64,000 nucleotides of DNA from Candidatus Uhrbacteria bacterium (GCA_016187485.1 JACPJO010000003.1:25587-89586), one strand, 5' to 3'. Shown: positions 17,396 to 64,000, counted from the first letter of the stretch. Notes: generated by a model not told the origin, from the letters alone. A program made the numbers and translations.

Positions 17396-17439
17396 AGGAG
17401 GACTATTACTTCGGGGACCGTTCCCTCTATCGTTGTGGA

Positions 17440-17467
17440 AAGCTTTTTCCCCAGCGGTGCTATAATG
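17440..17467 (+). promoter_or_regulatory. extended -10 promoter (TGcTATAAT) about 12 nt upstream of the VirB6-like ATG (short leader)
   Basis: GGTGCTATAATG at 17456-17467. Start codon at 17479. Confidence 0.35.
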
Positions 17468-17478
17468 AACACCAGAAT

Positions 17479-20250: not shown

Positions 20251-20251
20251 C

Positions 20252-21766: not shown

Positions 21767-21778
21767 TATACTCGACCT

Positions 21779-22916: not shown

Positions 22917-22918
22917 TT

Positions 22919-24895
22919 ATGGCTTTTGACGTTTCACAATTAAAACGCGATGCGACTTCGAGCGCGCCACAGGCGGCGCCGACGCTTTCGGATAAAGAAA
23001 TCCAAGAACAGGAGACGACACAACTTATTGAAGAGGAGCGCATTTATGCGCGCGGCACGGCGGCGGTGCGCGACCTCATTGCGCCCGCGGCGTTTGAAGT
23101 GAACCCGCGCTTTCTTCTGCTTTCAGGCGTGTATGTGCGCACGATCTTCATTGTCAATTATCCGCGGTACGTGTCGGTGGGGTGGTCGGCGTCTATCATC
23201 AACATGAACAAGACGTTTGACGTCGGCATGTTCTTCTATCCCGTGAAGGCCTCCATTATTCTCAAGCAATTGCAGAAGAAAGTCGGCGTGCTTGAAGCGG
23301 GAATTGCGGGCGATCACGAAAAAGGCAAGCCGCGCGATCCTATTAAGGAAACGGCACTTCGCGACATTGAACAATTGCGCGACGACCTCACACAAGGTAT
23401 TGAGCACTTTTTCCAGTTTGCTTTCTATCTGACTATCTATGCCAAGACCGAAGACGATCTGGACCGGCTAAGCGGGGAGATTGAGTCTGAGTTTGGCGGG
23501 AAGCTCATCTTCAGCAAAAAAGGTTTTTATCAGTCCGAGCAGGGATTCAACTCTACGCTCCCGCTTGGCAATGACGAACTCCTCATTACGTTTAACATGA
23601 ACACCTCGCCTATCGCGAGTTCATTCCCGTTCATTTCTGCCGATCTCACTTCCGACAACGGTATTCTCTATGGCGTAAATCGGCACAACAACAGTTTGAT
23701 TATCTTCGATCGGTTCAGCCTGCAAAACGCGAACTCTGTGGTCTTTGCTACGTCGGGTGCGGGGAAAAGTTATGCCATTAAACTGGAGATCATCCGCTCG
23801 CTGATGCTTGGCACGGAAGTGATTGTGATTGACCCGGAGATGGAATACAAAACGCTCTCCGAAGCGGTGGGCGGAACATATGTAAACATCTCGCTTTCGT
23901 CAGAGGCGAAAGTCAATCCTTTTGACCTCCCGCGTCCCAAAGGAGAGGAGGCCGATGTTGACGACATTATCCGTTCGGCGGTCATTACGCTTAAGGGATT
24001 GCTCCGTATCATGATTGGTCAACCGATCGGGGGGAGCTCGGTGATTGGCTTTACCCCGCAGGAAGATTCTATTTTGGATCGAGCGCTCATTGAAACGTAC
24101 GCCAAGAAAGACATTACGGCAGAGACGCGAGACCTTACGGGGCTTGAAATGCCCATCATGCAGGACTTGATTGATATACTTGCGGGCATGGAGGGGGCGG
24201 GGAATTTGGTGGAGCGGCTGGAAAAGTACGCAACGGGCACCTTCTCAGGACTCCTCAATTCTCCAACCACAGTGGAAATGAACAACCAGTTGGTGGTCTA
24301 TTCCGTGCGTGATTTGGAGGATGAACTGCGCCCCACGGCGGTGTATACCATCGTGAACCACATTTGGAACGTGGTGAGGTCGGAACGCAAAAAGCGCCTA
24401 TTGGTGATCGATGAAGCCTGGTGGCTCATGCAACATGATGATTCGGCGAAATTCATTTTCGCACTTGTGAAGCGTGCGCGCAAATACTATTTGGGCGTCA
24501 CGACGATCACACAGGATGTGAATGACTTTTTGCGCTCGCCCTACGGACAGGCGATCGTGACGAACTCGTCGCTCCAACTTCTTATGAAGCAATCCCCGGC
24601 GGGGGTAGAATTAGTGAAAGAGACTTTTCACTTAACGGACAACGAAAAATATCTTCTTCTGGAGGCTGGCGTGGGAGAGGGGATTCTTTTCGCGGGAAGC
24701 AAGCATGCGGCGATTAAAGTCGTTGCCTCGTATAACGAAGATCGTATTATTACAACGAACCCCGAACAACTGCTGCGTATAGAGGAAGAGCGGGCAAAGG
24801 CGGCGGCAGAGAACGCTCCAACGGAGACTGGAGGAAGGCCGGATATTCGCACGCAAGCGGCGGCGGCGCTTGAGGCGCCCGAAAATCTTGTATGA
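22919..24895 (+). CDS. VirB4/TrbE/PrgJ-family type IV secretion ATPase (C-terminal two-thirds)
   Basis: Walker A ATSGAGKS, Walker B LLVIDEAWW, and an upstream segment GVYVRTIFIVNYPRYVSVGW typical of VirB4. 658 aa, with Walker A at about residue 270; this suggests the N-terminal domain is supplied by the upstream ORF. Confidence 0.8.
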   Translation: MAFDVSQLKRDATSSAPQAAPTLSDKEIQEQETTQLIEEERIYARGTAAVRDLIAPAAFEVNPRFLLLSGVYVRTIFIVNYPRYVSVGWSASIINMNKTFDVGMFFYPVKASIILKQLQKKVGVLEAGIAGDHEKGKPRDPIKETALRDIEQLRDDLTQGIEHFFQFAFYLTIYAKTEDDLDRLSGEIESEFGGKLIFSKKGFYQSEQGFNSTLPLGNDELLITFNMNTSPIASSFPFISADLTSDNGILYGVNRHNNSLIIFDRFSLQNANSVVFATSGAGKSYAIKLEIIRSLMLGTEVIVIDPEMEYKTLSEAVGGTYVNISLSSEAKVNPFDLPRPKGEEADVDDIIRSAVITLKGLLRIMIGQPIGGSSVIGFTPQEDSILDRALIETYAKKDITAETRDLTGLEMPIMQDLIDILAGMEGAGNLVERLEKYATGTFSGLLNSPTTVEMNNQLVVYSVRDLEDELRPTAVYTIVNHIWNVVRSERKKRLLVIDEAWWLMQHDDSAKFIFALVKRARKYYLGVTTITQDVNDFLRSPYGQAIVTNSSLQLLMKQSPAGVELVKETFHLTDNEKYLLLEAGVGEGILFAGSKHAAIKVVASYNEDRIITTNPEQLLRIEEERAKAAAENAPTETGGRPDIRTQAAAALEAPENLV

Positions 24896-25446
24896 GCAGA
24901 CGAACAAAAATCACTGTCCTCTTACTGGTTCTTTTGCTTGCGCTTCTTTTGTGGTGGCTTTTGCGTCGCAAGGAAGAGATAGTGACGCCGGTACAAAACC
25001 AGCCAGCGGCAGAAGAGCAAGCCACGCCAACAAAGACATCTCTCGTCGCGCCGCTTGTGGTGCGTGAAAGCGCTAGCGAAGAAGAAGCGGGAGCGGTGGC
25101 GGTGGCGCGCATGTTTGCCGAACGTTATACAAGCTTTTCGTCTGAGAGCGATTTTGCCAACGTGCGTGATCTCTTTCCGCTCATGACCGCGTCTCTTTTG
25201 GCAAAAGAAGAAGCGCGTATACATGCGGCAGGCACAGAGGGCGCGTATCTGGGCATCACGTCGTCCGTCGTTACCATTGCAACAGTGGAGATGGATGAAG
25301 CACGGGCGGTGGTGGATGTTGGTCTACAACGACAAATAACACAGGGAGAAGAACGCGTACGCGAGACCCGCTACGAGACGCTGCGCCTTACGCTTATACA
25401 AGAAGAAGGGGAGTGGTTGGTGTCCGTGGCGGCGTGGCTCAAATAG
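24892..25446 (+). CDS. hypothetical membrane-anchored protein (184 aa)
   Basis: ATGA overlap with the VirB4 stop. N-terminal TM ITVLLLVLLLALLLWWLL. Confidence 0.5.
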   Translation: MSRRTKITVLLLVLLLALLLWWLLRRKEEIVTPVQNQPAAEEQATPTKTSLVAPLVVRESASEEEAGAVAVARMFAERYTSFSSESDFANVRDLFPLMTASLLAKEEARIHAAGTEGAYLGITSSVVTIATVEMDEARAVVDVGLQRQITQGEERVRETRYETLRLTLIQEEGEWLVSVAAWLK

Positions 25447-25452
25447 ACTCCT

Positions 25453-26124
25453 ATGTGGCAATGGTTTCTTGAGGGGTTGTTTCCGCGTCTGTGCGTGCGC
25501 TGTGGCAAGGAGGGAGCCGATGTATGCCCGACGTGCTTTGCTACGGTTTTTGAAAATGCGCCGCGGTTGGCGTGCCCCGTGTGCAACACATACTCCTCGA
25601 TTGGTGCGCGGTGTGGTTCGTGCAAAGGGGCCCTCGACGGGCTTTTATTTTGTGCATCCTACGCGGATCCTGTGGTGCGCGGTCTTATTGAGCGCTGGAA
25701 GTTTTCGTTTGCGCGCACCGTTGAAGAATCTCTGGCACAACTTTTTTCGCGTGCCCCACTGGATCGAGCGCTGGCCGGTGACGACTGGGTAGTGGTTCCT
25801 ATTCCGCTCCACGCAAAACGCAAACGCTGGCGCGGGTTCAATCAAGCAGAGTGGGTGGCACGACAGGTGGGGACGCGTCTGCGGCTTCCCGTGGTTCAGG
25901 CGCTTGCGCGCACGCGTGCGACAACGCAACAAGCACGCCGCTCCGCTGAACAAAAAAAGAGAGGGGACCTCTCTGGCGTATTTGAGGCCGCACAACCCGT
26001 CACCGGCCGGGTGATTCTCTGTGATGATGTTTACACCTCTGGCGCCACGATGGAAGCTGCTGCCTCGGCCCTCAAACAGGCCGGCGCTACATCCGTCTGG
26101 GGTGTCGCCATTGCACGGAGTTAG
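25453..26124 (+). CDS. comFC: ComF-family protein (double zinc-ribbon plus phosphoribosyltransferase domain)
   Basis: CxxC...CxxC pairs at the N-terminus, then RGFNQ and ILCDDVYTSGATM PRTase motifs. Confidence 0.8.
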   Translation: MWQWFLEGLFPRLCVRCGKEGADVCPTCFATVFENAPRLACPVCNTYSSIGARCGSCKGALDGLLFCASYADPVVRGLIERWKFSFARTVEESLAQLFSRAPLDRALAGDDWVVVPIPLHAKRKRWRGFNQAEWVARQVGTRLRLPVVQALARTRATTQQARRSAEQKKRGDLSGVFEAAQPVTGRVILCDDVYTSGATMEAAASALKQAGATSVWGVAIARS

Positions 26125-26169
26125 GTAGCGTTGATCCATTATCGAAATCCTGATAGAGTGCCCGCGCGT

Positions 26170-26232
26170 GGAGAGGTGCCCGAGCGGCTGCCCGCCAAAG
26201 GCGGGTCCGCCTCTGGCGGAAAGGGAGCAGTT
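26170..26232 (+). repeat. duplicated 5' fragment of tRNA-Ser(GCU) (33 nt) interrupted by a 30-nt twin-hairpin insert in the D-loop
   Basis: GGAGAGGTGCCCGAGCGGCTG plus AAGGGAGCAGTT is identical to the 5' end of the intact tRNA at 26490. The insert CCCGCCAAAGGCGGGTCCGCCTCTGGCGGA splits it. Confidence 0.7.
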
Positions 26233-26489
26233 ATATGCCCATCGTCTACGTCCTATTAAGCGATAAAACAGGCAGGCATTATACGGGGTCTTCTCGTGAC
26301 GATAACGTGGACGGTCGTCTCAAGAGGCATAATACTGGCCTTGTTCAATCCACAAAGCATGGTAGGCCTTGGCGTGTTGTACTCACGCAGATGTACGATA
26401 CGTACCGTGAGGCAAGAAAGCAGGAATTGTTTCTCAAATCTGGTGTGGGTCGTGAGAAATTGAGAGAGTTCTTTAATGATCCAAAACAC

Positions 26490-26787
<298 letters not shown>

Positions 26788-33044: not shown

Positions 33045-33512
33045 CTACCACACTTGGGCGAGCTTCTTGGCGAGCAGGTGCCGCTTCGTCCAGCTCACGA
33101 GCCAGCCGAAGGTGAGGAGGGAGGTGATGCTCTGGCGGAGCTTCGCATCGTCACGCGGCTCGTAGCCATCGAGAGTTTCGAGTTGGACGTTCGGGAAATA
33201 GCGTTGCCACATCCATCCCATCGTCTCTGCTTCCTCGCCCATCTGCGCTGCCCGCGATGCCCACGACCAGTTGAGCAGCTTGCCAAGCTCATCCGTGTCG
33301 AGGGGGAAGCCGAACCTTTCCTCGATGCGCCACGAGATCTCGAGGAAGTCGATGGATTCGAGGGTGAGGTCAGCGAAGAGAGTGGCTTCCTCGACAACCT
33401 CGTGTTCCTCCAGACCGCGCGTCTCCACCAAGATGATGCGGAGCGTGTCGACAACCTCTGCGTGTGACGGAGTCTTGGACACAGGAACCTCCGAGAACGG
33501 GTGTGCCGGCAT
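33045..33512 (-). CDS. acyl-carrier-protein-like (phosphopantetheine-binding) protein with about 80-aa C-terminal extension
   Basis: ATLFADLTLESIDFLEISWRIEERFG resembles the ACP DLGxDSLD Ser motif inside a four-helix-sized N-terminal domain. The hydrophobic tail ITSLLTFGWLVSW follows. Start moved to MPAHPF. Confidence 0.4.
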   Translation of the reverse strand: MPAHPFSEVPVSKTPSHAEVVDTLRIILVETRGLEEHEVVEEATLFADLTLESIDFLEISWRIEERFGFPLDTDELGKLLNWSWASRAAQMGEEAETMGWMWQRYFPNVQLETLDGYEPRDDAKLRQSITSLLTFGWLVSWTKRHLLAKKLAQVW

Positions 33513-33581
33513 CCTAGCGGAATACGAGATTTTTGCCAATATGACCGTGACGGTCACCACGCGCATTGATATGATACCGGC

Positions 33582-35656: not shown

Positions 35657-36880
35657 TCACTTCAGGCAATCGATGAGGATTCGGGCATGCTCTGGAGATA
35701 TGGCGCGGTCGAATCCCAAGCGTTTCGCCTCTTTTGTACGCCGATCGACACCGGGGACACGGCGGATCTCACCCGACAGTCCTACTTCACCAAACACGAC
35801 CGTCTTTTCGGCGGTGGGCTTATCCGAAAGCGCGCTTGCAATCGCCAAACATACGGCCAAATCTGCCGCAGGCTCTTGCAGGCGTAGGCCGCCCACCACG
35901 TTTACATATACGTCTTTGTCGGCGAGTTTGAGTCCAGCCCGCCGCGACAAAATGGCGCATAACATAAGGAGCCGGGAGACGAGTGCTTGTACTTCCACCA
36001 AAAACACACGCGACCCCTCAAGTGCCGCCGTGATGACAGATCCCGCAGCTGCAACGCGCTCCTCTAAAAAATAACTTGAGGGATTTGCTACCTCGACAAG
36101 TCCACCCTGCTGCATGTCAAACACGCCGACTTCGTCGGTGCTCCCAAAGCGATTTTTGCTTGCGCGCAAGATGCGTGACGACATGGCTGCTTCACCTTCT
36201 AGAACCAGAACTACATCAACCAAATGTTCCAGCGTCTTGGGACCTGCGGCTGCCCCGTCTTTCGTCACTTGGCCGATGAGGAGGATGCATGCTCCGGTAG
36301 TTTTGGCGGTCTGCACAAGAAGACTCGTTGCGTAACGCACGAGGGAGGCGCCACCCTCGGCCAAATCGGCAGCTGAGGACGTGAGGGTTTGGACGGAGTC
36401 TACAATGACAACACGCGGTCGGCTTTCGTTTATACTTGCACAGAGTGCCTCGACATCTGTTTCGCTTGAAAAAGAAAAATGCGACAGGCCGCAGTCGATC
36501 CTACCTAGCCGTGTGGCAAGTTGGTGAGCGGACTCTTCTCCCGATGCGTAGAGCGTGGGTTTCTCCGTTGTCCCCATGCGATTTCCCACAATAGCGGCAA
36601 GCGTAGATTTTCCGATTCCTGGCTCTCCGAACAACAATACAGCACTTCCCGTGACCAGTCCGCCGCCCAGCACGCGATCCCACTCCTCCATGCCGGAAGA
36701 TTGCCGTGCCGCCGCTCCTTGCTCGATTGTGAGAGGAGCGAAAATGGCCGGAGCTACATGTGAGAGCGCCCTCTTTCCGCTTACCCCCGCCTCCTCTACA
36801 AGCGTGCCCCACCCCTGGCAGGTAGGACACCGCCCGCTCCATTTCGGTTGTTGGCTGTCACATTTGGTGCAGGAGAACAT
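35657..36880 (-). CDS. radA: DNA repair protein RadA/Sms
   Basis: N-terminal zinc finger CTKCDSQQPKWSGRCPTCQGW, Walker A GEPGIGKST, and a C-terminal Lon-like domain. The track start (GTG at 36931) is the alternative. Confidence 0.85.
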   Translation of the reverse strand: MFSCTKCDSQQPKWSGRCPTCQGWGTLVEEAGVSGKRALSHVAPAIFAPLTIEQGAAARQSSGMEEWDRVLGGGLVTGSAVLLFGEPGIGKSTLAAIVGNRMGTTEKPTLYASGEESAHQLATRLGRIDCGLSHFSFSSETDVEALCASINESRPRVVIVDSVQTLTSSAADLAEGGASLVRYATSLLVQTAKTTGACILLIGQVTKDGAAAGPKTLEHLVDVVLVLEGEAAMSSRILRASKNRFGSTDEVGVFDMQQGGLVEVANPSSYFLEERVAAAGSVITAALEGSRVFLVEVQALVSRLLMLCAILSRRAGLKLADKDVYVNVVGGLRLQEPAADLAVCLAIASALSDKPTAEKTVVFGEVGLSGEIRRVPGVDRRTKEAKRLGFDRAISPEHARILIDCLK

Positions 36881-36915
36881 AGGTAGGCGAGAGAGAACGA
36901 GGCAACGTAACAACT

Positions 36916-38118
36916 CTAGTTCGTCGGACACTGCGAGGGATTATTTCCGGGACACGTCTTGATGGTCACCTTGCCGCCGGCGCTTACTGCCCTTGTGTAC
37001 GCAGTACTCCCTTCCCCTGTGTAGAGGTCAAGGCGGCGCCCCTTAATCCATGCCCCACCATCTTCGGCATACCACACAGCATTATTTGCCTCGCCAAGAG
37101 GGGAGTCGAAGATTTTAAACACGGTGCCTTTAGGCAGACAAGAACTTACCGCAGCCGTGTGGAACGCTTGGGGGAGGACGGCGGGTGGGCTGGTTTGGTT
37201 GCAGTAGGTGGTGCCTTCGGGGAACGGAACACAGGGCTGCCACTTTCCTCCGGCGGCGCTGCAGGAAGATTCAGGTTGTCTACCATTCGGACACGTACAC
37301 TGCATAGCGATGTTGCATTCAAAACTTTGATACGCCTGCTTCTCTCCGTAAGACGGTTTGTAATATCCTGTTGTGAAAAATGTTACGCCATTTCTCAACT
37401 CTTCCGTGCTCGGGCACCCCATTCCTTTGAATTCCTCTGCCGTGTCGGCCAACTCTGGGTGAGCGACGATACTTGCGGTGAAGTCTGCATCCGAACGCTC
37501 GATTACTTTAAAACTGATTGGCCGCGAGACGACGAGCTGCGGATTCACCGTGTAGAGGAGCAGATAACTGGCAAGGAGAATGACAAATCCCACGATGGCG
37601 TTTTTTATACGCTCCATGCCTTCCTTCGCGCCCTTGCCGGTGGCGCCGAGCATATACTGAATGCCGCCTACCATGATCATCACCACGGCGAAAACGGCAG
37701 CAATGCCGATGAGCCACCGGTAAATGCCGACGATGTATTGGCCAATGAAGTTCACGGAGACACTCCCGTTTTCAAAGACAGGCTTTGTGAACGAGAAGTT
37801 TGGAATGGGCACGGAAAGGCGCGGGACAATGGGGGATGGCTCGACAGCAGGGGGCGTGTCCTCTACGATTTCTGACCGTGCTTCGGAAGAAATAAAGGTG
37901 CCTCCGGCTTGCTGGACCCGTTCCATACACTGCGTCTGACAACGTTCGTTCAATGGTGTGGAACCGGTCTCGGGAATAAACGCCAAACGTGCAGCGGTGC
38001 TTTTTCCGGTCGGGTAGTAATTGCAGTGGCACGCTTCAACGGTTGTTGTTTCTGCCTGCCCAGACGAAGGAAGAAGTGTCCCAAGAATGAAGACAAGGAT
38101 AAGAGCACGCCGCATCAT
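36916..38118 (-). CDS. secreted Cys-rich protein with internal TM segment and C-terminal 3D (MltA/RlpA-like) domain
   Basis: Signal peptide MMRRALILVFILGTLLPSSGQA. Central hydrophobic stretch IGIAAVFAVVMIMVGGIQY. C-terminal GTVFKIFDSPLG...AEDGGAWIKGRRLDLYTGEG resembles the three-Asp 3D domain. Confidence 0.5.
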   Translation of the reverse strand: MMRRALILVFILGTLLPSSGQAETTTVEACHCNYYPTGKSTAARLAFIPETGSTPLNERCQTQCMERVQQAGGTFISSEARSEIVEDTPPAVEPSPIVPRLSVPIPNFSFTKPVFENGSVSVNFIGQYIVGIYRWLIGIAAVFAVVMIMVGGIQYMLGATGKGAKEGMERIKNAIVGFVILLASYLLLYTVNPQLVVSRPISFKVIERSDADFTASIVAHPELADTAEEFKGMGCPSTEELRNGVTFFTTGYYKPSYGEKQAYQSFECNIAMQCTCPNGRQPESSCSAAGGKWQPCVPFPEGTTYCNQTSPPAVLPQAFHTAAVSSCLPKGTVFKIFDSPLGEANNAVWYAEDGGAWIKGRRLDLYTGEGSTAYTRAVSAGGKVTIKTCPGNNPSQCPTN

Positions 38119-50365: not shown

Positions 50366-51490
50366 TTAGAGCGTTTGAATACCGACCTCGCCATCGAGAA
50401 AGCGGTGCATTTCTCCTTGCGTGGCGAGGTGCGCCAAGCGGGAGAGCGCCAGGTCTTCGCCGTTGTGCGGCGAGAGCGTTGCGAGTTCGTGGCGCATCTG
50501 CTCTTGCGTCTGCTCGAAGACGGTGTTGACGGCACGGCGGACGTCTTCATCGAGGGCAAGAATGTCCAGGACCTTGCCCGTTTCGGTCTGGCTGACACGC
50601 GCGGCCGCGACGAGATCGTCAAGGCTCTGGCGCGGGAAGTGCATACCCTTCGTGATGTAGGGCAGGAGCTCCGTGAAGCGCGACTCCTGCAGAACGAGGA
50701 TGCGTGCCACAAGGCCGATGCGCGCGATCATCTTGCTCTTCTTTGAACGGGTGTCGGCGATGGTGGTCATGATTCGGCGGATCAAGGTTACACGGTCGCG
50801 AAAGGTTCGGGGCACGCCGCGTAAGCGGGTCCAGTACTGGTAGGCCTCGAAGGCTTCCCAGATGTGGCAGTGCCCGTAGTCCACTCGCAGAGGAAAGATG
50901 AGCCGAGAGATGCGCTCCTTCTTGTAGCGCAGGGCCATCTCTGCCATGAGCGTCGCGGCCTCCTCCATGTGCGTGTCGGCGAGGATGACGACGAACTCGT
51001 CGCCACCGTGCCGCACCCCGAAGTGGCGCAGAAGGAGGACGTTCTCTCCATGCTCGTCGTATCCCGTCGCGAGGCGTTCGGTGTCGAGGAAGCTCTGCAA
51101 GGTCGCGCCGAAGCGCTCCAGAACCTGGTCGCCCACCTCATGCCCGTAGGCATTGGCGAGCGCCAAGTAAGAGAGATCTCCCCAGATGAGCGTGGTGTTC
51201 ATCGAGGCGATTTCCGCTGGCGTCAGGTTCTCGATCGGGAGTCCTCGCATGAGTTTTCCCGCCACGGGCGTGTCCATGAAGCGGCGGATGAGCGCGGCCA
51301 AGTGCGGCCAGAGCTCGTCGCGGCGGAACAGCCCAGTGAGACCGTCGCGCCGCCGCCGTTGGATCTCGGCGTCTTTCCGCTCCAGGTCTCTGTTGAGGCG
51401 CTCGACCTCTTTTTCTTCTGCGAGGATTCTGTCCTCGAGTTCTCGAATGCGCGCGTGAGCTTCGAGCAGGGTCGTCGGTAGAGTATCCAC
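50366..51490 (-). CDS. GGDEF-domain protein (putative diguanylate cyclase) with N-terminal coiled coil
   Basis: RHGGDEFVVIL GG(D/E)EF motif. N-terminal heptad-rich segment. 62% GC. Confidence 0.8.
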   Translation of the reverse strand: MDTLPTTLLEAHARIRELEDRILAEEKEVERLNRDLERKDAEIQRRRRDGLTGLFRRDELWPHLAALIRRFMDTPVAGKLMRGLPIENLTPAEIASMNTTLIWGDLSYLALANAYGHEVGDQVLERFGATLQSFLDTERLATGYDEHGENVLLLRHFGVRHGGDEFVVILADTHMEEAATLMAEMALRYKKERISRLIFPLRVDYGHCHIWEAFEAYQYWTRLRGVPRTFRDRVTLIRRIMTTIADTRSKKSKMIARIGLVARILVLQESRFTELLPYITKGMHFPRQSLDDLVAAARVSQTETGKVLDILALDEDVRRAVNTVFEQTQEQMRHELATLSPHNGEDLALSRLAHLATQGEMHRFLDGEVGIQTL

Positions 51491-56644: not shown

Positions 56645-56938
56645 ATGTTGCTTGACGCTAAAGACATTCTGTTTATCGTACTCGCTTTTTGCGCGCTGTG
56701 GTTTACGGCGTTTGCATGTTGGCTTATTTATCAGTTGGCGGTGTTTCTGAAAAATGTAAATGACACGGTTTCTGATGTGCGCGGGTCGGTGGCGAAACTT
56801 GAGCAGGCAGTCAGCGGTATCCGCAACAGGTTTGATCACGCGACGTCTGGCATGATGCTGGCGCTTGAGGCGGGGAAGAAAATTGTGGATATGCTTGCCA
56901 CCCGGCGAGAGGAGAAGAAGGTGAAGAAAAAGAAATAG
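56645..56938 (+). CDS. hypothetical small membrane protein with Lys-rich tail
   Basis: Single TM ILFIVLAFCALWFTAFACWLIY, then a helical region. RBS GGAGGA. Confidence 0.45.
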   Translation: MLLDAKDILFIVLAFCALWFTAFACWLIYQLAVFLKNVNDTVSDVRGSVAKLEQAVSGIRNRFDHATSGMMLALEAGKKIVDMLATRREEKKVKKKK

Positions 56939-56945
56939 AGATAGA

Positions 56946-56970
56946 AAAACGGGGCTCGTGCCCCGTTTTG
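56946..56970 (+). terminator. rho-independent terminator
   Basis: ACGGGGC-UCGU-GCCCCGU plus UUUG after AAAA (bidirectional-looking). Confidence 0.55.
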
Positions 56971-57048
56971 ATATTGGTTGACATTCGCTCGTTATGGTGA
57001 TCAAATGCCTGCACCCCGTTTCGTCAACATCCACCGGTAGGAGGTTCC

Positions 57049-57692
57049 GTGGACACAGACTCTACGAGCAACATCTCGCGCATTCTCAAAGAGACAGGGG
57101 CAGTTCTCACGGACGGGCCTTCGTCTACACGAGCGGACGTCACGGGAATGCCTACGTCAACAAGGACGCCATCTACCCACACACGGAGAAGGTCACCGCT
57201 CTGTGCTGGTACCTGGCTCAGGCATTCGACACGGACCAGGTGGACGTCGTCGTGGGTCCGGCCATGGGCGGGATCATTCTCTCCCAGTGGACGGCGCATC
57301 ATCTGCGGTCCCGGACTTCGATTGGGGTCCTGGCGGCCTATGCCGACAAGGCGCCGACGGGCTTTGTTCTCAATCGCGGCTACGGCGCGTTGGTCCAGGG
57401 CAAGCGGGTGCTCGTGGTGGAGGACGTTCTCACCACGGGAGAGTCGGTACGCGGGGCGGTCTTCGCCGTGCGTGCGGTGGGTGGCGATGTGGTGGGCGTG
57501 GGCGCGCTCTGCAACCGCGGTGGGGTGATGGCCAGACACGTGGGCGAAGTGCCCAAGCTCGTATCGCTTCTCAACATCACGCTTGACTCCTGGGGCGAGC
57601 TGGCGTGCCCACTGTGCGCAAAGGGGGTTCCTGTCAACACGGATGTCGGCAAGGGCCACGACTTCCTCGCTCGCAAGGCTACCCACTCGTGA
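57049..57692 (+). pseudogene. pyrE: orotate phosphoribosyltransferase (pyrE) with apparent single-nucleotide frameshift near 57115-57125
   Basis: RBS AGGAGG plus GTG 57049 gives MDTDSTSNISRILKETGAVLTDG in frame 1. The OPRT body (FVYTSGRHGNAYVNKD...VLVVEDVLTTGES...) continues in frame 0 from about 57120. Either frame alone lacks part of the enzyme. Confidence 0.55.
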
Positions 57693-57725
57693 GCAGAGCG
57701 ATCTGAACAAAGTTCTTTCTTTACA

Positions 57726-57756
57726 GCCACGTCCTAGAGACGTGGTTTCGAGTTTT
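57726..57756 (+). terminator. rho-independent terminator after pyrE
   Basis: CCACGUC-CUAGAG-ACGUGG plus UUUCGAGUUUUU. Confidence 0.45.
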
Positions 57757-57780
57757 TGAGAGAGGACTAAAAGCTGGTTT

Positions 57781-57885
57781 CGAACCTCACCTAAGTGTCG
57801 ATCGGCACTTATATGAGGTTCGGATCTTGAGCCAAGCATTTCGGTGCCTGGCACCAATTTGCTCAATGTTTTGGTGCCTGGCACC
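57781..57885. repeat. bipartite palindromic module, copy 2: 42-nt imperfect palindrome (core AAGTGTCGATCGGCACTT), GGTGCCTGGCACC and CAATTTG 20 nt downstream, and a second GGTGCCTGGCACC
   Basis: Seen directly. Same element order and identical 20-nt spacing as copy 1 (571-651). Lies about 250 bp upstream of ORF 58138. Confidence 0.6.
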
Positions 57886-58137
57886 TTTTTACGTTTTTGA
57901 TTGACACCCGCCTTTTATGGTGCTCAAATACGTTCAACCCGCTTCGTCAACGGGTTCCTGTCGCTGACAGGTCAAAAGCCGCCGCTCAATTCTGGGCGGC
58001 CGCCGGCGTCACTGACGCAGGAAGGACAATAAGGGACGACCCCCGCTCTGCGGGGCCCTCTCGCCGTGCCGAGTTAGTCACTTGGCACACCCCGTCTCTG
58101 ACGGCTCGCGAGGTTCCAAACGACTAGAGGTGACGAC

Positions 58138-58986
58138 ATGCCTGTTAAGAAAAAGGACCTTCGGGTCGACTCCTACATGGAGTTCGTCGAGTTCGTTCCC
58201 GCCCCCCTTCGTCCATTGTACTGCGTCCTTCTGGCGCTCTCGCAGAGCATGGGCCAGGTGTACGAGTACCACAAGCTCCTGTCGGCCCACTGGCAGCTCG
58301 TGAAGGCTGACGTGATCCGTCTGAAGAAGGTCTGGAAGGACCTGAACGGTGGTGACCTCGGCCGTACCTTCTACAAGCTCCAGCTTCTCGAAGCCTCGCG
58401 AGCACTCCTTCTCCTGCAGTGGTCCGTAGACCCTCAGACAAATGTCTCTGGCTACTACATCGATCGTCTTGTCGAGGCGTTCGGAGGGAATCGATCAGAG
58501 GGGCGTTCTCCGTCTTCATCTTGCGTTCTGCTTGTAGAGGAGGCTGAGGGAGTGACGGGGGTGACGGAGGAGACCCTCTCCAGGTTTCAGAGCCCTGCCA
58601 TGTTTACCGTTGAGATGATCGAATGTCTGATGAACGCGAGTGTCGAGCTCCATCAATATCCGAATCGTGGATGGATGGTCGAAGTGTGCGCAGCAGATGC
58701 CTCGTTCCAGAGGCTCGATGCACATGTTGTCGACCGCTTCATCGATAAGGTTCCTAAGGAGTTTGTTCTGATTCAACGGCACAGCGGTACGCGGGGACGG
58801 TCTGCCGCAACGACTTCCTGCACGATGTGCATCACGGTACCCTGCAACCTGCCGCTCGAGGCGAGCTCATCGGTCACGATGGGCGAATGGATCGCACCCG
58901 ATGCGTTTCTCTCTGACCTCAAGGTAGCTCTGAATGCGGCGGGAGTCCCGGTCTCTGACATCAGGCGTCCCATCAAGGCTGCCTGA
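58138..58986 (+). CDS. hypothetical protein (282 aa)
   Basis: RBS GAGGTGA plus ATG. No recognisable family. Followed by the conserved 3' element A. Confidence 0.45.
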   Translation: MPVKKKDLRVDSYMEFVEFVPAPLRPLYCVLLALSQSMGQVYEYHKLLSAHWQLVKADVIRLKKVWKDLNGGDLGRTFYKLQLLEASRALLLLQWSVDPQTNVSGYYIDRLVEAFGGNRSEGRSPSSSCVLLVEEAEGVTGVTEETLSRFQSPAMFTVEMIECLMNASVELHQYPNRGWMVEVCAADASFQRLDAHVVDRFIDKVPKEFVLIQRHSGTRGRSAATTSCTMCITVPCNLPLEASSSVTMGEWIAPDAFLSDLKVALNAAGVPVSDIRRPIKAA

Positions 58987-58994
58987 TCCACCAA

Positions 58995-59072
58995 CCTCGC
59001 TCGCCTCTTGGGTGCCAACGCGCCTTCGGGCCGAGCCAACAATCTCAACCCAGTCGTCTGACTGGGTTTCGA
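58995..59072. repeat. cassette 3' element A (imperfect palindrome GGGTGCCAACGCGCCTTCGGGCCGAGCC ... CCCAGTCGTCTGACTGGGTTTCGA)
   Basis: About 85% identical to element B at 60626-60696. Ends in a 7-bp hairpin and a short U tract (terminator-like). Confidence 0.55.
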
Positions 59073-59141
59073 CTTTTACAACCACAACCACCCCCGTGGA
59101 GACGAAGGTGGAGTGGTGTTCCCGGATCTTGCCTCTGTGGC

Positions 59142-59217
59142 TGGTGGAACTGACCGGATTCGAACCGGCAACTCTAGGTGTCGACGCTAGTGAGGTTACC
59201 ATTACCTCTACAGTCCC
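59142..59217 (-). tRNA. tRNA-like gene with atypical anticodon arm (possible pseudo-tRNA or recombination site)
   Basis: Minus strand: acceptor GGGACUG/CAGUUCC (one G-U), D arm GAGG-UAAUGGUAA-CCUC, T arm GCCGG-UUCGAAU-CCGGU, discriminator A plus CCA. The anticodon stem is CUAG/CUAG plus a C-C mismatch, and the loop is GUCGACA (anticodon CGA). This is inconsistent with the short variable arm. Confidence 0.4.
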
Positions 59218-59393
59218 ACGGATCCGGGGTGAAACAAATACAACTCACCAGGGGAGAGTTGTATTTGAGACACCTAGATAGAGGAAATACCTCACTAGCT
59301 TAGGTGCATTCCACCACAGAATTGTCTCTTTGTCAATGGCATTTTGTGGATTATTCCTCTTTGCCACGGTGCCACTTTGCAACTCTTTCGAGG

Positions 59394-59435
59394 TTTCTCT
59401 CTAAGTTGTCTCTTAGAGATCACTAAGAGAGAATT
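59394..59435. repeat. 42-nt direct repeat copy 1 (TTTCTCTCTAAGTTGTCTCTTAGAGATCACTAAGAGAGAATT) with internal dyad symmetry
   Basis: Perfect copy at 60859-60900. About 280 nt upstream of ORF 59717. Confidence 0.65.
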
Positions 59436-59716
59436 TATGTCGACACTCCGGTTATTGACACCTCTCTCCGATAGTGCTCAAATAGCCGCATCCTGCCTTG
59501 TCAGCGGGACTCATACGAGGACGTATGATGCTATCCGGCCTCTCTCAATCATGGGAGAAAACGTTGCGGGGACGCAGCGGGTCGGCGAAACAACATCCCA
59601 GGCAAATCCGTCGGGAGACGGATGGGACATTTCCAAGCCGGATGTGGTCAGTCGGTTTGGTTCTGCGGGGACGCAGAGCGCCTTTGGCGGAATGGTTTCA
59701 CGACCTTGGACAAACC

Positions 59717-60616
59717 ATGTCGACGTTCAGTGAGATTCTTGAGCACTTCAGGAAGCTTGGCTACAGGGATCCGAAGAAGCTCGCGCGGATCTGGCAGATG
59801 GCTGTGAGCGTGCGTGACGTTCGACGTCTGCACGACATCATGCCCGAGGGGGATCAGCTGCTCCGGCACGATCGGCGGCTTCTTGAGAAGGGTTGGGAGG
59901 ACTACACGAAGACGCGTCCCAAGCCGTGGCGTCGTTTCGATGATGACGTAGCGAAGGCAGAGCTCTCCGAATACGCATCCCTCTGTGCCCACCATCCCTA
60001 CTACGCTCGTACCATCGTCCACGCGCACATGCAGGAGAGGAAGGGGGCACCGCACCCGCGTCGATCGGAGTACTGGTCCGTAGGCGCACCTCGTCCGCAT
60101 CTCTCCATCGTTCAGCGGAGCCTCGAGCCCCACATCCTCTGCGATGCATTCACGGGATACCTTGCCGGCGTCCTGTGCCAGATCGCATGCCTCTACAATA
60201 GGCAGACCAGCCCCGCCGAGTTCCTCGTGGAGGTCACGATCGACGCATCGTGCCTTACGCACACTGCGTCAACGCTTCTCCTGCCGGTGCTGACCTGCGA
60301 GGACCACTGCTTAGATGCGGTCAACAATCGGTTGGAGTTCCGCTACATCATCTCCGCCGACAGCCTGGTCTCACACCTCAAGAAGGTGGAACGGCCTAGT
60401 GGTCGTGTTCACGTCGTGGCGGAGCCCGGGTTCGCTGCCGCGCTTGAAGGTGTTCTGCGGGAGAACGGCCTTCAGACCATCGAGCAGATCAAGCTCGTCC
60501 TGCCTGATCTCGTCCTGGCATCGGGGCATGAAATCGACGACAGGAGGAGTAGAGGAGCGTATTTCACGGTCGACTCCCGTGACCCGCACTGCGTCGTCAC
60601 CATGAATGTTTCCTGA
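59717..60616 (+). CDS. hypothetical protein (299 aa)
   Basis: Start moved to MSTFSEILEHFRKLGY; the upstream part of the track ORF is R/G-rich. Followed by 3' element B. Confidence 0.45.
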   Translation: MSTFSEILEHFRKLGYRDPKKLARIWQMAVSVRDVRRLHDIMPEGDQLLRHDRRLLEKGWEDYTKTRPKPWRRFDDDVAKAELSEYASLCAHHPYYARTIVHAHMQERKGAPHPRRSEYWSVGAPRPHLSIVQRSLEPHILCDAFTGYLAGVLCQIACLYNRQTSPAEFLVEVTIDASCLTHTASTLLLPVLTCEDHCLDAVNNRLEFRYIISADSLVSHLKKVERPSGRVHVVAEPGFAAALEGVLRENGLQTIEQIKLVLPDLVLASGHEIDDRRSRGAYFTVDSRDPHCVVTMNVS

Positions 60617-60625
60617 CCTCACCAT

Positions 60626-60696
60626 CTTGCTCGGCTCGGGGGTGCCAACGCGCCTCCGGGCCGAGCCCATCAACCCAGTCATCTGACTGGGTTTCG
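60626..60696. repeat. cassette 3' element B (GGGTGCCAACGCGCCTCCGGGCCGAGCC ... CCCAGTCATCTGACTGGGTTTCGA)
   Basis: Paralogous to element A at 58995-59072. Confidence 0.55.
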
Positions 60697-60858
60697 AATT
60701 CCTGACTTCTCTTTGGGCCGCCTCTTCGTGGCGACATAGGAGTCGATGAGTAATATCAACCTCAGTCGTGATCTTCATGTAAGGACCGATCGGCCCTTGC
60801 GTGAAGACCGGTGCCTATAAGACTTTCTGCAAGGCCGTGTTTCTACGACGGAATTGAA

Positions 60859-60900
60859 TTTCTCTCTAAGTTGTCTCTTAGAGATCACTAAGAGAGAATT
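60859..60900. repeat. 42-nt direct repeat copy 2, 46 nt upstream of the dnaE start
   Basis: Identical to 59394-59435. Confidence 0.65.
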
Positions 60901-60946
60901 GGTATCCAATACGCTTAGTACTGGACAACTCCCGCCGGGAGGCCCG

Positions 60947-63900
60947 ATGTGGTACGCTTTGGCCGGTATGCCAAGCCCGTTCGTCCACCTCCATGTGCAC
61001 AGTCATTACTCTCTTTTGGAGGCTCTTCCGAAAGTGAAGGAACTGGTAAAGTTTTGTGATGCGCAAAACATGGACGCCATGGCGCTTACAGACAATGGGG
61101 TACTCTATGGGGCCATTGAGTTTTATCAAAAAATGACAGAGGCCGGGAAGAAGCCCCTTATCGGCATGGACGTCTATCTGGCGCCTTACGGCCGTACACA
61201 AAAGCGCGCGCGTATTGATACGCGGCCGTGGCGGCTCGTGCTTCTTGCGGAAAATGAAACAGGGTACCGAAACCTCATGAAACTTTCCTCACAAGGTTTC
61301 CTCGAGGGATTTTATTATAAACCACGTCTCGATGACGAGTTGCTTGCGAGCATGAAGGAGGGTCTCATCTGCCTCTCCGGCGGCTATCACAGCGAGCTTG
61401 CCACGTTGGCGCGGCAAGGAGCTGATCGTACCAAGCTCCGAGAAGTTGCAGAGCGGTACAGAGACATGTTCGGGCCAGAGCACTTTTATCTTGAACTTGT
61501 GGATCGGCCCGAGCTGGCCGAACAGCGCACGGTGAACAGCCTTCTTGTGGAAATAGGGAAGGAGTGTGGGATCCCGCTTGTGGTGACGCGCGACGCCTAT
61601 TATCTTGCCCGCGGCGACCAAGAGGCTTGGCGCGTGCAATCGTGTATTCAAGGGAGTCGGACACTCGAGGAAGTCGAGCGCGGCACGCAGAATGATTTTG
61701 ACGCCTCGCTTTCTGATGCAGAGGGGATTGCCGCCCGTTTTGCGGATCTCCCGGAAGCCATTGAAAACACGCGCCGCATCGCCGACCGGTGTAATCTCAC
61801 GCTTGATCTTGGCAAGTGGAATTTCGCCAACATTGATATTCCTGCAGGGAAGACAGCCATTGAATTTTTGCGCGAACGCGCGTATGCCGAGCTCGCACAA
61901 AAAGTTCCTGAAATTACAGAGGAGATGCAAAAGCGTTTGGACTATGAACTCGGCGTCATTGACTTCAAGGCTTTTGCGCCATACTTCTTGATCGTCTCTG
62001 ACTATATTCAGTATGCGCGGCGCAACGGCATCGTGACCACGACGCGCGGCTCGGCGGCCGGGTCCCTCGTAAGTTACGCCATCGGCATTTCTACCGTAGA
62101 TCCGCTCCGCTACCGTCTTCCATTTGAGCGCTTTTTGAATCCCGAGCGTCCCTCCGCCCCCGATGTGGACGGAGACTTTGCGGACAACCGGCGTGATGAA
62201 ATGCTGGCATACGTGACGGAGAAATACGGTGCCGATAAAGTGGCGCAGATTTGTACGTTTGGCACGATGTTGGCGCGCGGAAGTGTCCGCGATGTTGGTC
62301 GTGCGCTCGGTTTTTCCTATGGATTTGTAGATGGAGTCGCCAAACTTGTGCCGATGGGAAGCCAGGGATTTCCTATGACGCTTGAGCGCGCGCTTGGAGA
62401 AAGCCCGGACTTAAAAAAGCGCTACGACACGGAGCCGGATGTCCGGCGCGTGATTGACGTAGCACGCCGTATTGAGGGCCGGGCGCGGCATGTCTCCATT
62501 CACGCCGCCGGCACCGTTATTGCGCCTACCCCTCTTGTAAACTTTACGCCGCTCCAGCGCGATACGCGTGAGGGGAAAGTGATCACGCAGTACGAAATGA
62601 AATCTGTCGAAGCCGCCGGGCTTCTCAAGATGGATTTTCTTGGCATCCGCAACCTCTCCATTCTTGGAGATGCGGTCAAGTTGGTGCGCAAGCTTAAGGG
62701 AGTCGAGATTGAACTTGAGAAAATTCCTGTGGATGACGGGAAGACTTTTTCCCTATTAGCACGCGGGGAAACGATGGGGCTGTTTCAGTTGAATGGGGAT
62801 GGCATGACGAAGTATCTCATGGAGCTTAAGCCGGAACGTATTGAAGACATCATGGCGATGGTGGCCTTGTATCGTCCGGGGCCTATTGAATCTATTCCCG
62901 AGTACATCCGCCGCAAGCACAATGCGTCTCTTATCCAGTATCTGGATCCGCGCATGGAAAGTATCCTCGATATGTCGTATGGCGTTATTGTCTATCAGGA
63001 TGACGTGATGCTTATTGCCATTCACCTCGCGGGCTATTCGTGGCTTGAAGCCGACAAATTGCGCAAAGCGATGGGGAAGAAAATTCCCGAAGAGATGGCC
63101 AAGCAGAAAGAGAAGCTGCTTGAAGGATTCGTGGCGCATGGACTGTCGGCCAAAAAAGCGCACGAGCTGTGGTTGCTTATTGAGCCGTTTGCGGCATATG
63201 GATTCAACAAGGCGCATGCCGCGTCCTACGGGATGGTGGCGTACCAGACAGCGTACATGAAGGCGAATTACCCGGCGGAGTACATGACAGCGCTCATGAC
63301 GGCAGAGGCTTCCGACTTGGATAAGATCGCCGCGGCTGTTACGGAATGCCGCCGCATGGGCATGGATGTGTTGGGCCCCGATGTGAATATTTCATTTAGA
63401 GATTTCACTTACGTGGACGATAAAACAATCCGCTTTGGGCTTTTGGTCGTGAAGAATCTTGGTGTAGAAGTGGTGAATACTATTGTGGAGGAACGAAAGA
63501 CGCACGGGACGTTTACTGATCTTGCGGATTTTGCCGCTCGTGTGACGCACCGCGCGTTTAATAAAAAATCTCTGGAGGCTCTTATCAAGGCGGGAGCACT
63601 AGATGTTTTCGGGGAGCGCCGGCAGATGCTCGAAAACGTGGATCAAATCCTTGCGTACAACAAACATGTTCAAAAAGCGCGTGAACAAAAACAAACGTCG
63701 TTCTTTGACCTCTCGCCCTCTGCCACCGGCGAACGTCTCTCCCTCTCGCCTGCTCCTGCGGCAAGCCGTTTTGAACGATTGGCATGGGAGAAAGAACTTC
63801 TCGGCTTGTATGTAAGTGCGCATCCGTGGTCGGAAGTCCTCCCACACGTCTCGAAGTATGTTGTGTCGATCGCCGACGCTATAGGGCAGAAGCCGGATAC

Positions 63901-64000
63901 GTTCGCACGCGTAGGGGGGATGCTCTCGGATCTTTCCGTGATTACTACAAAAAAAGGGGACCAGATGGCCTTTGCGCGGCTCGGTGACGGAAGAGCCCAG
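60947..64000 (+). CDS. dnaE: DNA polymerase III alpha subunit, N-terminal about 1018 aa (continues beyond window)
   Basis: RBS GGGAGG plus ATG. PHP domain VHLHVHSHYSLLE. Long uninterrupted frame-2 ORF with polymerase palm/fingers signatures (FDIDFC-like DVDGDFA, GRARHVSIHAAG). No stop within the window, hence absent from the ORF track. Confidence 0.85.
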   Translation, partial: MWYALAGMPSPFVHLHVHSHYSLLEALPKVKELVKFCDAQNMDAMALTDNGVLYGAIEFYQKMTEAGKKPLIGMDVYLAPYGRTQKRARIDTRPWRLVLLAENETGYRNLMKLSSQGFLEGFYYKPRLDDELLASMKEGLICLSGGYHSELATLARQGADRTKLREVAERYRDMFGPEHFYLELVDRPELAEQRTVNSLLVEIGKECGIPLVVTRDAYYLARGDQEAWRVQSCIQGSRTLEEVERGTQNDFDASLSDAEGIAARFADLPEAIENTRRIADRCNLTLDLGKWNFANIDIPAGKTAIEFLRERAYAELAQKVPEITEEMQKRLDYELGVIDFKAFAPYFLIVSDYIQYARRNGIVTTTRGSAAGSLVSYAIGISTVDPLRYRLPFERFLNPERPSAPDVDGDFADNRRDEMLAYVTEKYGADKVAQICTFGTMLARGSVRDVGRALGFSYGFVDGVAKLVPMGSQGFPMTLERALGESPDLKKRYDTEPDVRRVIDVARRIEGRARHVSIHAAGTVIAPTPLVNFTPLQRDTREGKVITQYEMKSVEAAGLLKMDFLGIRNLSILGDAVKLVRKLKGVEIELEKIPVDDGKTFSLLARGETMGLFQLNGDGMTKYLMELKPERIEDIMAMVALYRPGPIESIPEYIRRKHNASLIQYLDPRMESILDMSYGVIVYQDDVMLIAIHLAGYSWLEADKLRKAMGKKIPEEMAKQKEKLLEGFVAHGLSAKKAHELWLLIEPFAAYGFNKAHAASYGMVAYQTAYMKANYPAEYMTALMTAEASDLDKIAAAVTECRRMGMDVLGPDVNISFRDFTYVDDKTIRFGLLVVKNLGVEVVNTIVEERKTHGTFTDLADFAARVTHRAFNKKSLEALIKAGALDVFGERRQMLENVDQILAYNKHVQKAREQKQTSFFDLSPSATGERLSLSPAPAASRFERLAWEKELLGLYVSAHPWSEVLPHVSKYVVSIADAIGQKPDTFARVGGMLSDLSVITTKKGDQMAFARLGDGRAQ

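Follow-up and report, generated by a model that had tools for sequence, protein, structure and literature searches.

The 4.0 kb of DNA (56939-60946) that separate dnaE from p97, a 97-aa open reading frame (ORF) at 56645-56938, in a Candidatus Uhrbacteria bacterium, a member of the Candidate Phyla Radiation (CPR)/Patescibacteria, raise the question of where this DNA comes from and how it has been put together. The window, which is the whole stretch of 64,000 nt that was analyzed, contains at this place (referred to as the island) a frameshifted gene for a phosphoribosyltransferase (PRTase) that is like orotate phosphoribosyltransferase (OPRT) and was labeled pyrE, two orphan genes, ORF1 and ORF2, and, on the opposite strand, the gene of a tRNA-like RNA.

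The first part of the question can be answered by comparison with relatives, for which 80 loci (51-71% DnaE identity) were retrieved by means of a DnaE fragment. The gene order pheS-pheT-p97-dnaE is kept in the 43 relatives having p97 upstream of dnaE. In 24 of these, the gap between p97 and dnaE is shorter than 650 nt and has no gene of at least 150 aa inside, and in the other 19 there are other, unrelated inserts of 0.8-6.7 kb, coding for an AAA ATPase, a DUF11 protein, a CitMHS transporter, a spermine-synthase-like protein and orphans. The PRTase gene, ORF1, ORF2 or any tRNA gene is found at this junction in none of the 43 relatives, so that the same genes are not seen in synteny, and a blastn comparison of the island with the relatives gives no significant nucleotide match. 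From the synteny of the relatives and the lack of a blastn match, the region 56939-60946, including the gene labeled pyrE, is therefore considered to be lineage specific, and the comparison supports its description as a lineage-specific accessory insertion at an otherwise conserved junction. The three island genes also have a higher G+C content at third codon positions (GC3), being 0.69-0.81 as compared with 0.53-0.62 for most housekeeping genes of the window. The first-pass annotation of this DNA, made from the window alone, had described an island between pyrE and dnaE; there is indeed accessory DNA before dnaE, but the pyrE-labeled gene belongs to the insertion. Every feature listed in that annotation is found where it was placed or a few bases away. 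Its suggestion of a site of repeated insertion or recombination with accessory genes is correct as far as the accessory DNA at a conserved junction is concerned. However, the inserts of the other genomes are miscellaneous, and no recombinase and no tRNA gene was found in the p97-dnaE inserts of the other genomes examined, so that a dedicated integration hotspot is not indicated; differing content at one junction, at such evolutionary depth, does not prove its existence.

The second part of the question, how the insertion has been put together, is in our opinion best explained as a row of autonomous promoter-leader-ORF-hairpin-terminator units, grown by local copying of modules and accompanied by palindromes that are like repetitive extragenic palindromic (REP) sequences, and this explanation has a somewhat better than even chance of being correct. 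The insert would then consist of three same-strand single-gene units (the frameshifted OPRT-like PRTase gene, ORF1 and ORF2), which would be transcribed independently on the plus strand, with the conserved gene of the tRNA-like RNA on the minus strand between ORF1 and ORF2. Its noncoding DNA would be assembled from a sigma70-type promoter with about 25 nt of leader start (three copies), a 3' module (two copies) and the REP-like palindromes (the CGATCG-centered palindrome, GGTGCCTGGCACC and a 42-nt dyad). The parts of the units and the right border of the insertion are the following.

56978-57035, plus strand: promoter-like and leader-start module P0 before the PRTase gene, TTGACA-N13-GTGATCAAAT, then CCCCGTTTCGTCAAC
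57049-57692, plus strand: OPRT-like PRTase gene, GTG start at 57049, 1-nt deletion near 57118, the frame shifting after codon 23
57725-57760, plus strand: predicted PRTase terminator, hairpin CCACGTC/GACGTGG, then TTTCGAGTTTTT
57901-57955, plus strand: promoter-like and leader-start module P1, TTGACA-N13-GTGCTCAAATA, then the CCCGCTTCGTCAACGGG hairpin
57956-58137, plus strand: noncoding leader of ORF1, without codon periodicity, with a GAGGTGA ribosome-binding site 7 nt before the ATG
58138-58986, plus strand: ORF1, orphan of 282 aa with a coding signal (HYW18_01290, annotated as hypothetical)
58970-59075, plus strand: 3' module copy 1, last five codons and stop, hairpin H1 at 58999-59036 (three mismatches), predicted terminator hairpin at 59047-59068, TTTCGACTTTT
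59455-59508, plus strand: promoter-like and leader-start module P2, from the module alignment
59509-59716, plus strand: noncoding, structured leader of ORF2 (folding z = -3.9 for 59490-59725)
59717-60616, plus strand: ORF2, orphan of 299 aa with a coding signal (HYW18_01300, annotated as hypothetical)
60600-60700, plus strand: 3' module copy 2, last five codons and stop, perfect 17-bp H1 at 60629-60666, predicted terminator hairpin at 60672-60693, TTTCGAATT
60947-64000, plus strand: dnaE, ATG at 60947, running off the window; conserved right border of the insertion

The promoter-like module TTGACA-N13-GTGMTCAAAT is found at 56978, 57901 and 59455, before the PRTase gene, ORF1 and ORF2, and these are the only three matches in the window when up to three mismatches are allowed (0.06 are expected). 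This sequence would correspond to a -35 box and, after a spacer of 17 nt, a TCAAAT -10 box with a TGn extension, and the three copies remain similar over about the first 25 nt of the transcript (CCCGYTTCGTCAAC). When the ORF1 and ORF2 units are aligned globally, the similarity is confined to two blocks, 57895-57955/59449-59508 and 58946-59075/60575-60700. The first block is the shared 5' module of about 55 nt, which is absent from the first-pass annotation and of which the PRTase unit has the third copy, and the second block consists of the last 40 nt or so of each ORF together with the 3' element. The leaders between the promoter-like module and the start codon of ORF1 and ORF2 are 210-230 nt long, have a flat composition and are predicted to form stable folds (z = -2.0 and -3.9).

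The 3' element was previously described as being about 85% identical between the two genes and as following each ORF within 10-40 nt. There are indeed two related copies, exactly two in the 64 kb where none is expected, but the similarity begins inside the ORFs, whose last five codons and TGA stop are similar and in register, and identity between the copies is 78% in the first 68 nt and 94% in the terminal 31 nt. Also, the imperfect palindrome of the earlier description exists, but its true form is a GC-rich 17-bp stem, GCTCGGC...GCCGAGC, with a CAAC loop (H1), which is perfect in copy 2 alone and has three mismatches in copy 1. It is followed by a second hairpin of 9 bp and by UUUCGA with U residues, the tails being UUUCGACUUUU or UUUCGAAUU. 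The 3' module folds into these two hairpins with z-scores of -4.4 and -6.5, and the folding of the plus strand is better than that of the minus strand (-51.3 versus -43.8 kcal/mol as RNA and -26.7 versus -21.7 kcal/mol as DNA) because of three G-U pairs. This preference for the plus strand points to a function in the transcript, where the upstream hairpin would most likely shield the 3' end and transcription would stop at the second hairpin and its TTTCGA-U tail. The GC-rich hairpin and the U-rich tail, located 3' of the stop codon on the coding strand, agree with a predicted intrinsic terminator.

Such a hairpin with TTTCGA(N)TTT occurs after the PRTase gene, ORF1 and ORF2 and after six other high-GC3 genes of the window; two further high-GC3 genes have a hairpin with a TTTCG variant, whereas the terminator of p97 ends with TTTTGA. 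Most genes of the window have a GC3 of either about 0.53-0.62 or 0.69-0.91, and few lie between these two groups. Judged from these occurrences, the element ends in the terminator type that is usual for the high-GC3 genes. The possibility that the 3' elements are ordinary terminators, which the first-pass annotation had named as counting against its own proposal, therefore applies to the hairpin/TTTCGA end, but only ORF1 and ORF2 have H1 and this particular stem in the terminator. The base composition and the terminators together suggest that the high-GC3 genes are a distinct, probably acquired class with its own terminator style. High-GC3 stretches are located, for example, at 2581-9919, 11348-13963, 15012-17342, 33045-33566, 50366-51490 and 57049-60616. 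When further copies of the 3' element were searched for in IMG/VR and in the JGI metagenomes, none was found, and its second hairpin is also absent from IMG/VR. A 22-mer of the element that is present in three IMG/VR contigs was rejected, being a chance coding match in a 661-aa ORF, which we take to be a terminase gene (...IVGANAPSGL...).

The PRTase gene starts at the GTG at 57049, which is preceded by a GGAGG ribosome-binding site, and its frameshift is due to one missing base of a His codon near 57118. All five independent Logan contigs spanning this position carry the deletion. Once the frame is repaired, the protein of 214 aa can be aligned along 96-98% of its length to thousands of homologues, which are about 211 aa long and come from the CPR as well as from other bacteria, and its score against the NCBIfam pyrE_Therm model is 130 bits, the cutoff being 150. 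The gene is either a recent pseudogene or a gene needing frameshifting.

ORF1 and ORF2 would be explained most economically if one whole unit had been duplicated long ago, after which the regulatory ends, the stop and the last five codons would have been kept and the coding interior would have diverged beyond recognition. It is in agreement with the first-pass annotation that the two ORFs share no similarity in a BLASTP comparison (best E = 20). The Smith-Waterman score corresponds to z = 1.9, with 11 out of 300 shuffles scoring at least equally, and hhalign finds a collinear alignment with P = 0.036; these weak signals leave a distant paralogy open. It is to be noted that several points weigh against the explanation by duplicated units. 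The paralogy statistic (P of about 0.04) is marginal, and it is unusual that noncoding ends are 70-94% identical while the coding interiors are randomized; kept ends with randomized interiors are also compatible with a transfer of modules or a swapping of cassettes. The perfect 42-nt repeats around exactly one unit (discussed below) need a separate, recent event, which an old duplication does not explain. The AlphaFold2 single-sequence models (predicted local distance difference test values of 35 for ORF1 and 41 for ORF2) are too poor for a fold comparison, promoter and terminator activity is deduced from consensus and folding, and the searches for further copies of the modules in the genome cover the 64-kb window. 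The anatomy, the insertion as seen against the relatives, the coding signal, the asymmetry between the strands and the lack of attC features are direct results, and the duplication history and any function of the two proteins are matters that we infer.

If the explanation by locally copied units is correct, then the island shows a small CPR genome adding accessory genes at a conserved junction by reusing promoter, terminator and palindrome modules. It is also useful for the annotation of CPR transcription signals, as TTGACA-N17-TCAAAT with TGn and the hairpin with TTTCGA appear to mark the high-GC3 class.

An unlikely alternative is that what the units share at their 5' and 3' ends are small regulatory elements that are mobile or prone to copying, like miniature inverted-repeat transposable elements (MITEs), REP sequences or Correia-like elements, which came to lie beside unrelated genes, ORF1 and ORF2 never having been paralogues. 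This is compatible with the absence of significant similarity between the ORF interiors, with the presence of the promoter-like module also before the unrelated and widely conserved PRTase gene and with the occurrence of several other palindromic families in the island and elsewhere in the window, and the common last codons and stop could have come with an element that inserted at the end of an ORF. However, the 64 kb hold only two copies of the 3' module and three of the 5' module, all within the 4-kb island, and no terminal inverted repeats or target duplications are seen beside the modules, nor is a transposase seen. No recombinase or transposase domain was found with Pfam in the scanned parts of the window (620-12316, 12919-26579 and 32834-59423; 26.6-32.8 kb is outside the scan), and the modules have no matches in IMG/VR or in the JGI metagenomes.

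The recent event that is mentioned above concerns the 42-nt repeats, which belong to the palindromes of the island. These have no assigned strand and are located as follows.

57778-57822: CGATCG-centered palindrome copy 2, 84-88% identical to copy 1 at 567-609
57843-57855 and 57873-57885: two GGTGCCTGGCACC palindromes of 13 nt (0.1 expected by chance)
59394-59435: 42-nt dyad repeat copy 1, a perfect match to copy 2
60766-60808: CGATCG-centered palindrome copy 3, degenerate, 67% identity
60859-60900: 42-nt dyad repeat copy 2, abutting the ancestral dnaE -35 box TTGAAT (60854-60859)

Eight of the 10 palindrome copies of the window fall in the 4-kb island. The first-pass annotation had palindrome copy 2 opening the island; this copy is where it was described, but the third copy was missed and the insertion starts already at 56939. 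As judged by reading of the sequences, the stem of copy 3 appears to be kept by compensatory changes in several pairs. A candidate 24-codon small ORF (MSNINLSRDLHVRTDRPLREDRCL) at 60747-60821, behind AGGAG, overlaps this copy and sits between the ORF2 terminator and the second 42-mer. A third GGTGCCTGGCACC copy, with the central base complemented, is present at 630-642. The region 567-642 thus has the CGATCG palindrome copy 1 and then GGTGCCAGGCACC, in the same two-part arrangement as at 57778-57885, and it is downstream of a minus-strand high-GC ORF near the gene for tRNA-Trp. A sigma-54 reading of TGGCACC-N-TTGC at 57849 was rejected, the GG-GC spacing being off by one.

The earlier observation of a perfect 42-nt direct repeat with dyad symmetry is borne out, as the copies are identical at 42 out of 42 positions with a spacing of 1465 nt, copy 2 ends 46 nt before the ATG of dnaE, and the 42-mer occurs nowhere else in the window. 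It has the form of a long dyad (-18 kcal/mol when folded as RNA), and neither the 42-mer nor the CGATCG palindrome is present in IMG/VR. The 42-mers and the other palindromes resemble REP-type intergenic hairpin repeats. Since the 42-mers are perfectly identical, as compared with 70-94% for every other module, they mark a recent event, and this event was either the integration or duplication of the ORF2 unit at this place or the insertion of a small palindromic element twice, each time independently. In the relatives with a simple gap, the tail of the p97 terminator provides the -35 box of dnaE (...TTTTGAATTTC-N-TAAGCT). In the window, copy 2 of the 42-mer begins on the last base of TTGAAT and contains TTGTCT-N17-GAGAAT, which is possibly a replacement promoter.

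Taken on its own, the possibility that the ORF2 unit (59436-60858) was integrated separately or can be excised, with the 42-nt repeats as att-like or recombination junctions, is rather improbable. Site-specific or homologous recombination would have inserted a circle at the 42-mer, or the segment would loop out. The perfect repeats, when compared with the other shared modules, are in agreement with such a recent event; they bracket exactly one promoter-ORF-terminator unit and one palindrome, and copy 2 abuts the ancestral dnaE -35 box TTGAATTTC, which is present in the relatives. There is also a Logan unitig of 1483 nt that is exactly the inter-repeat segment, as a circle would also give, but this unitig and the contig breaks at 59423 are expected of a 42-nt repeat at k = 31 and are therefore uninformative. 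Moreover, the segment is without a recombinase, nine Logan contigs are all 100% identical to the window with no empty-site variant seen among them, and, the 42-mer being a dyad like the other REP-type palindromes, two independent insertions would also give a perfect repeat.

It is very unlikely that ORF1 and ORF2 are not genes at all and that the region is noncoding or a decaying remnant. Such a view would be consistent with the frameshift of the neighboring PRTase gene, with the very low AlphaFold confidence and with the lack of homologues, each of the two proteins matching itself alone among 5.8 billion cluster representatives. A full HMMER scan with ORF2 against 1.84 billion representatives also gave the self-match alone, and nothing significant was found for either protein in Pfam, PHROGs, PADLOC, NCBIfam or the sequences of the Protein Data Bank (PDB); weak matches to CATASP (E = 0.087) and Spx (E = 0.09) were disregarded. 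However, both ORFs show three-base periodicity, with G+C contents at the first, second and third codon positions of 0.61, 0.42 and 0.69 (ORF1) and of 0.64, 0.42 and 0.74 (ORF2), and their in-frame codon scores of 0.19 and 0.15 fall in the range of the real genes of the window, whereas the leaders have neither periodicity nor score. The open frames of 282 and 299 codons are located exactly between the promoter and terminator modules, and the ribosome-binding site of ORF1 is strong.

The weakest proposal is that of the first-pass annotation, in which the layout is like that of integrons or of clusters of attC sites lacking integron-integrases (CALIN), the 3' elements being attC-type sites and ORF1 and ORF2 cassettes captured by a tyrosine recombinase encoded elsewhere. 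Activity of attC sites relies on folding of the bottom strand with extrahelical bases, and integron cassettes are promoterless. Two unrelated ORFs, each followed by a related imperfect palindrome in DNA that is accessory relative to the relatives, do resemble such a layout, but the proposal has hardly any probability left, as there is no RYYYAAC/GTTRRRY on either strand in 58940-59140, 60570-60760, 57700-57900 and 59380-59450, no R''/R' pair at attC spacing in the whole island and no R/L box, as it is the top strand that folds more stably (as DNA and as RNA) and copy 2 is a perfect stem without extrahelical bases, as every unit has its own promoter module and long leader, as most high-GC3 single-gene units of the window end in the same form of terminator as the second hairpin with its TTTCGA tail, as the 3' element is absent from IMG/VR and the JGI metagenomes, and as, in line with the earlier remark that the window has no integrase, no integrase or other recombinase was matched with Pfam in the 58 kb examined. 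There is no need to retain the integron idea, and the island is not a new mobile-element mechanism.

The most interesting element of the locus is the gene of the tRNA-like RNA, which lies between the ORF1 and ORF2 units and consists of the following parts.

59308-59336, minus strand: promoter-like site, TTGACA-N17-TGGAAT, in an arrangement that recurs at L093, L094 and L095
59218-59307, minus strand: leader, with Box A at 59289-59299, Box B at 59269-59278 and a second hairpin at 59228-59274
59142-59217, minus strand: tRNA-like RNA of 76 nt, with G1-C72, G2-C71, G3-U70, A73, an encoded CCA and a weak anticodon arm with the loop GUCGACA
59088-59111, minus strand: terminator-like hairpin downstream of the gene, from folding

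ARAGORN predicts this gene as a tRNA-Ser(cga) of 76 nt, and its Rfam score is 43.6 bits as compared with 55-68 bits for the four other tRNAs of the window; regular tRNA-Ser genes of 88 and 93 nt are also present in the window. It has a C31-C39 mismatch, G32 and C37. The first-pass annotation considered it a pseudo-tRNA with a defective anticodon arm on the opposite strand; the gene and its weak arm are real, but it is a conserved RNA gene that is found in other contexts, and not a decayed relic of integration. Other family members were obtained by running ARAGORN on the fetched loci, which gave L044, and by a pattern scan of the JGI metagenomes, which gave more, resulting in four distinct members (the window, L044/L093, L094/L096 and L095). 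The family loci other than the window (59142-59336) are at 3130-3440 of L093, 905-1210 of L094 and 680-985 of L095. All four members are 76 nt long and have G1-C72, G2-C71, G3-U70, A73, the encoded CCA, the D loop UAAWGGUAA, a 4-nt variable loop AGUU, a canonical T arm and the anticodon loop U-N-G-A-(C/G)-A, and each gene has a promoter-like TTGACA-N17-TNNAAT, a leader of about 90-130 nt, a leader-trailer stem and a predicted terminator. According to our reading of ORF translations, the gene is close to thrS, to a fragment of a class I tRNA synthetase or to uvrB in the other genomes; as these neighborhoods are different, the tRNA-like gene is not tied to the cassettes or to dnaE.

In the window, Box A of the leader is complementary to 59186-59196 and Box B to 59173-59182 of the tRNA-like body; these segments correspond to tRNA positions 22-32 for Box A and 36-45, including the anticodon, for Box B. 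In the alignment of the four sequences, 96% of the cells of the 19 leader-body pairs are paired, as compared with 75% for the anticodon stem, and changes on both sides are observed for 12 of the 19 leader-body pairs and for three of the five anticodon-stem pairs. The observed pairing is reached by none of 500 shuffles (by one of 500 for one of five measures), and it drops to 28-42% when the partners are slid by 1-3 columns. The predicted duplex energy is -14 to -20 kcal/mol per box, versus 0 to -2.9 kcal/mol for the isolated anticodon arm.

The RNA differs from a canonical tRNA-Ser by its 4-nt variable loop, by the C (G in one member) at position 37 and by the incompletely paired anticodon stem, whereas the alanine identity elements G3-U70, A73 and G2-C71 are invariant in all four members. 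These features suggest that it is probably a tRNA mimic that accepts alanine and has its anticodon arm engaged by its own leader. A donor for nonribosomal aminoacyl transfer and a processing-gated regulator are candidate roles. A reassignment of UCG or UCA to alanine was rejected, as the residues aligned with the UCG codons of dnaE, pheT and pheS are Ser in 42% and Ala in 6% of the cases, like those of other Ser codons, and so was an internal promoter with the TTGACA in the anticodon loop, which has the wrong spacing. Rfam has nothing for the leader of the window, and the family was not found in a limited literature search; to our knowledge, no tRNA or tRNA-like family has been described with leader boxes that covary with the anticodon arm, with which this limited search agrees. 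A report on bacterial tRNAs with 4-bp anticodon stems (PMC13092985) concerns, in the part consulted, a different feature, an unpaired top pair of the stem, and no Patescibacteria.

These considerations can be combined, tentatively and with a little less than even confidence, into a joint reading in which the tRNA-like RNA would represent an undescribed RNA class of the Patescibacteria with an intrinsically unstable anticodon arm, the two boxes of 10-12 nt in its leader would pair with both strands of this arm, the leader would be a built-in lock or switch on maturation or function and the RNA would be an alanyl donor or regulator outside decoding, while, independently of this, the ORF2 unit would be excisable via the 42-nt att-like repeats.

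Some observations concern other parts of the window. In the radA-like gene (35657-36931, minus strand), near 35974, the window is without 51 nt (17 codons, in frame) that are found in a Logan contig of the same organism (L098, 17219-17268); this difference is either a population variant or an assembly artifact of the deposited metagenome-assembled genome. Type IV secretion/conjugation-like genes (PrgI, TraC-like, VirB4/TraG-like ATPase and type IV secretion system pilin) at 17479-25446 and 36916-38118 adjoin a Peptidase_M23 gene. A high-GC3 cluster at 4559-8108 (minus strand) codes for a pyridoxal phosphate-dependent decarboxylase, a tryptophan 2,3-dioxygenase-like protein and a class I tRNA synthetase of the Trp/Tyr type (GC3 0.91), and may, from its gene content, be an acquired tryptophan-related module. 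Its decarboxylase gene appears leaderless, as TTGACA-N16-TAGAGT ends 1 nt before the ATG.

When compared with known systems, the island is like integron cassettes and CALIN in being an accessory region with unrelated ORFs of the same orientation, each with a related imperfect palindrome, but it differs from these in having two copies only, with own promoters and terminators and with neither R/L boxes nor an integrase. Phage morons are also single genes with their own promoter and intrinsic terminator between conserved genes and with a composition unlike that of the flanks; however, the island is without PHROG or IMG/VR matches, and its units have copied regulatory modules in common, a property by which morons are not defined. 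The families of short imperfect palindromes, comprising the 42-nt CGATCG palindrome, the 13-nt GGTGCCTGGCACC and the 42-nt dyad, are, like REP sequences and bacterial interspersed mosaic elements (BIMEs), intergenic only and often located after genes, but there are two or three copies per family in 64 kb, mostly in the island, the 5' GTAG-type motif of REP sequences was not identified in the island palindromes, and no REP-associated tyrosine transposase (RAYT)-type transposase was seen. The closest comparison for the tRNA-like RNA is with alanine-accepting tRNA mimics, such as the tRNA-like domain of transfer-messenger RNA (tmRNA) and the cell-wall tRNAs of Gram-positive bacteria (PMC7826273, PMC2175331), with which it shares the G1-C72/G2-C71/G3-U70/A73/CCA end and the canonical T arm, and whose nondecoding role is matched by an anticodon arm that looks unfit for decoding. 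It is not a tmRNA, since it has a full 76-nt cloverleaf, and it is unlike the known alanine mimics in that two boxes of its leader covary with the anticodon arm. If this RNA is charged and used outside translation, or if its leader gates maturation, it would be a new type among the few bacterial tRNA mimics.

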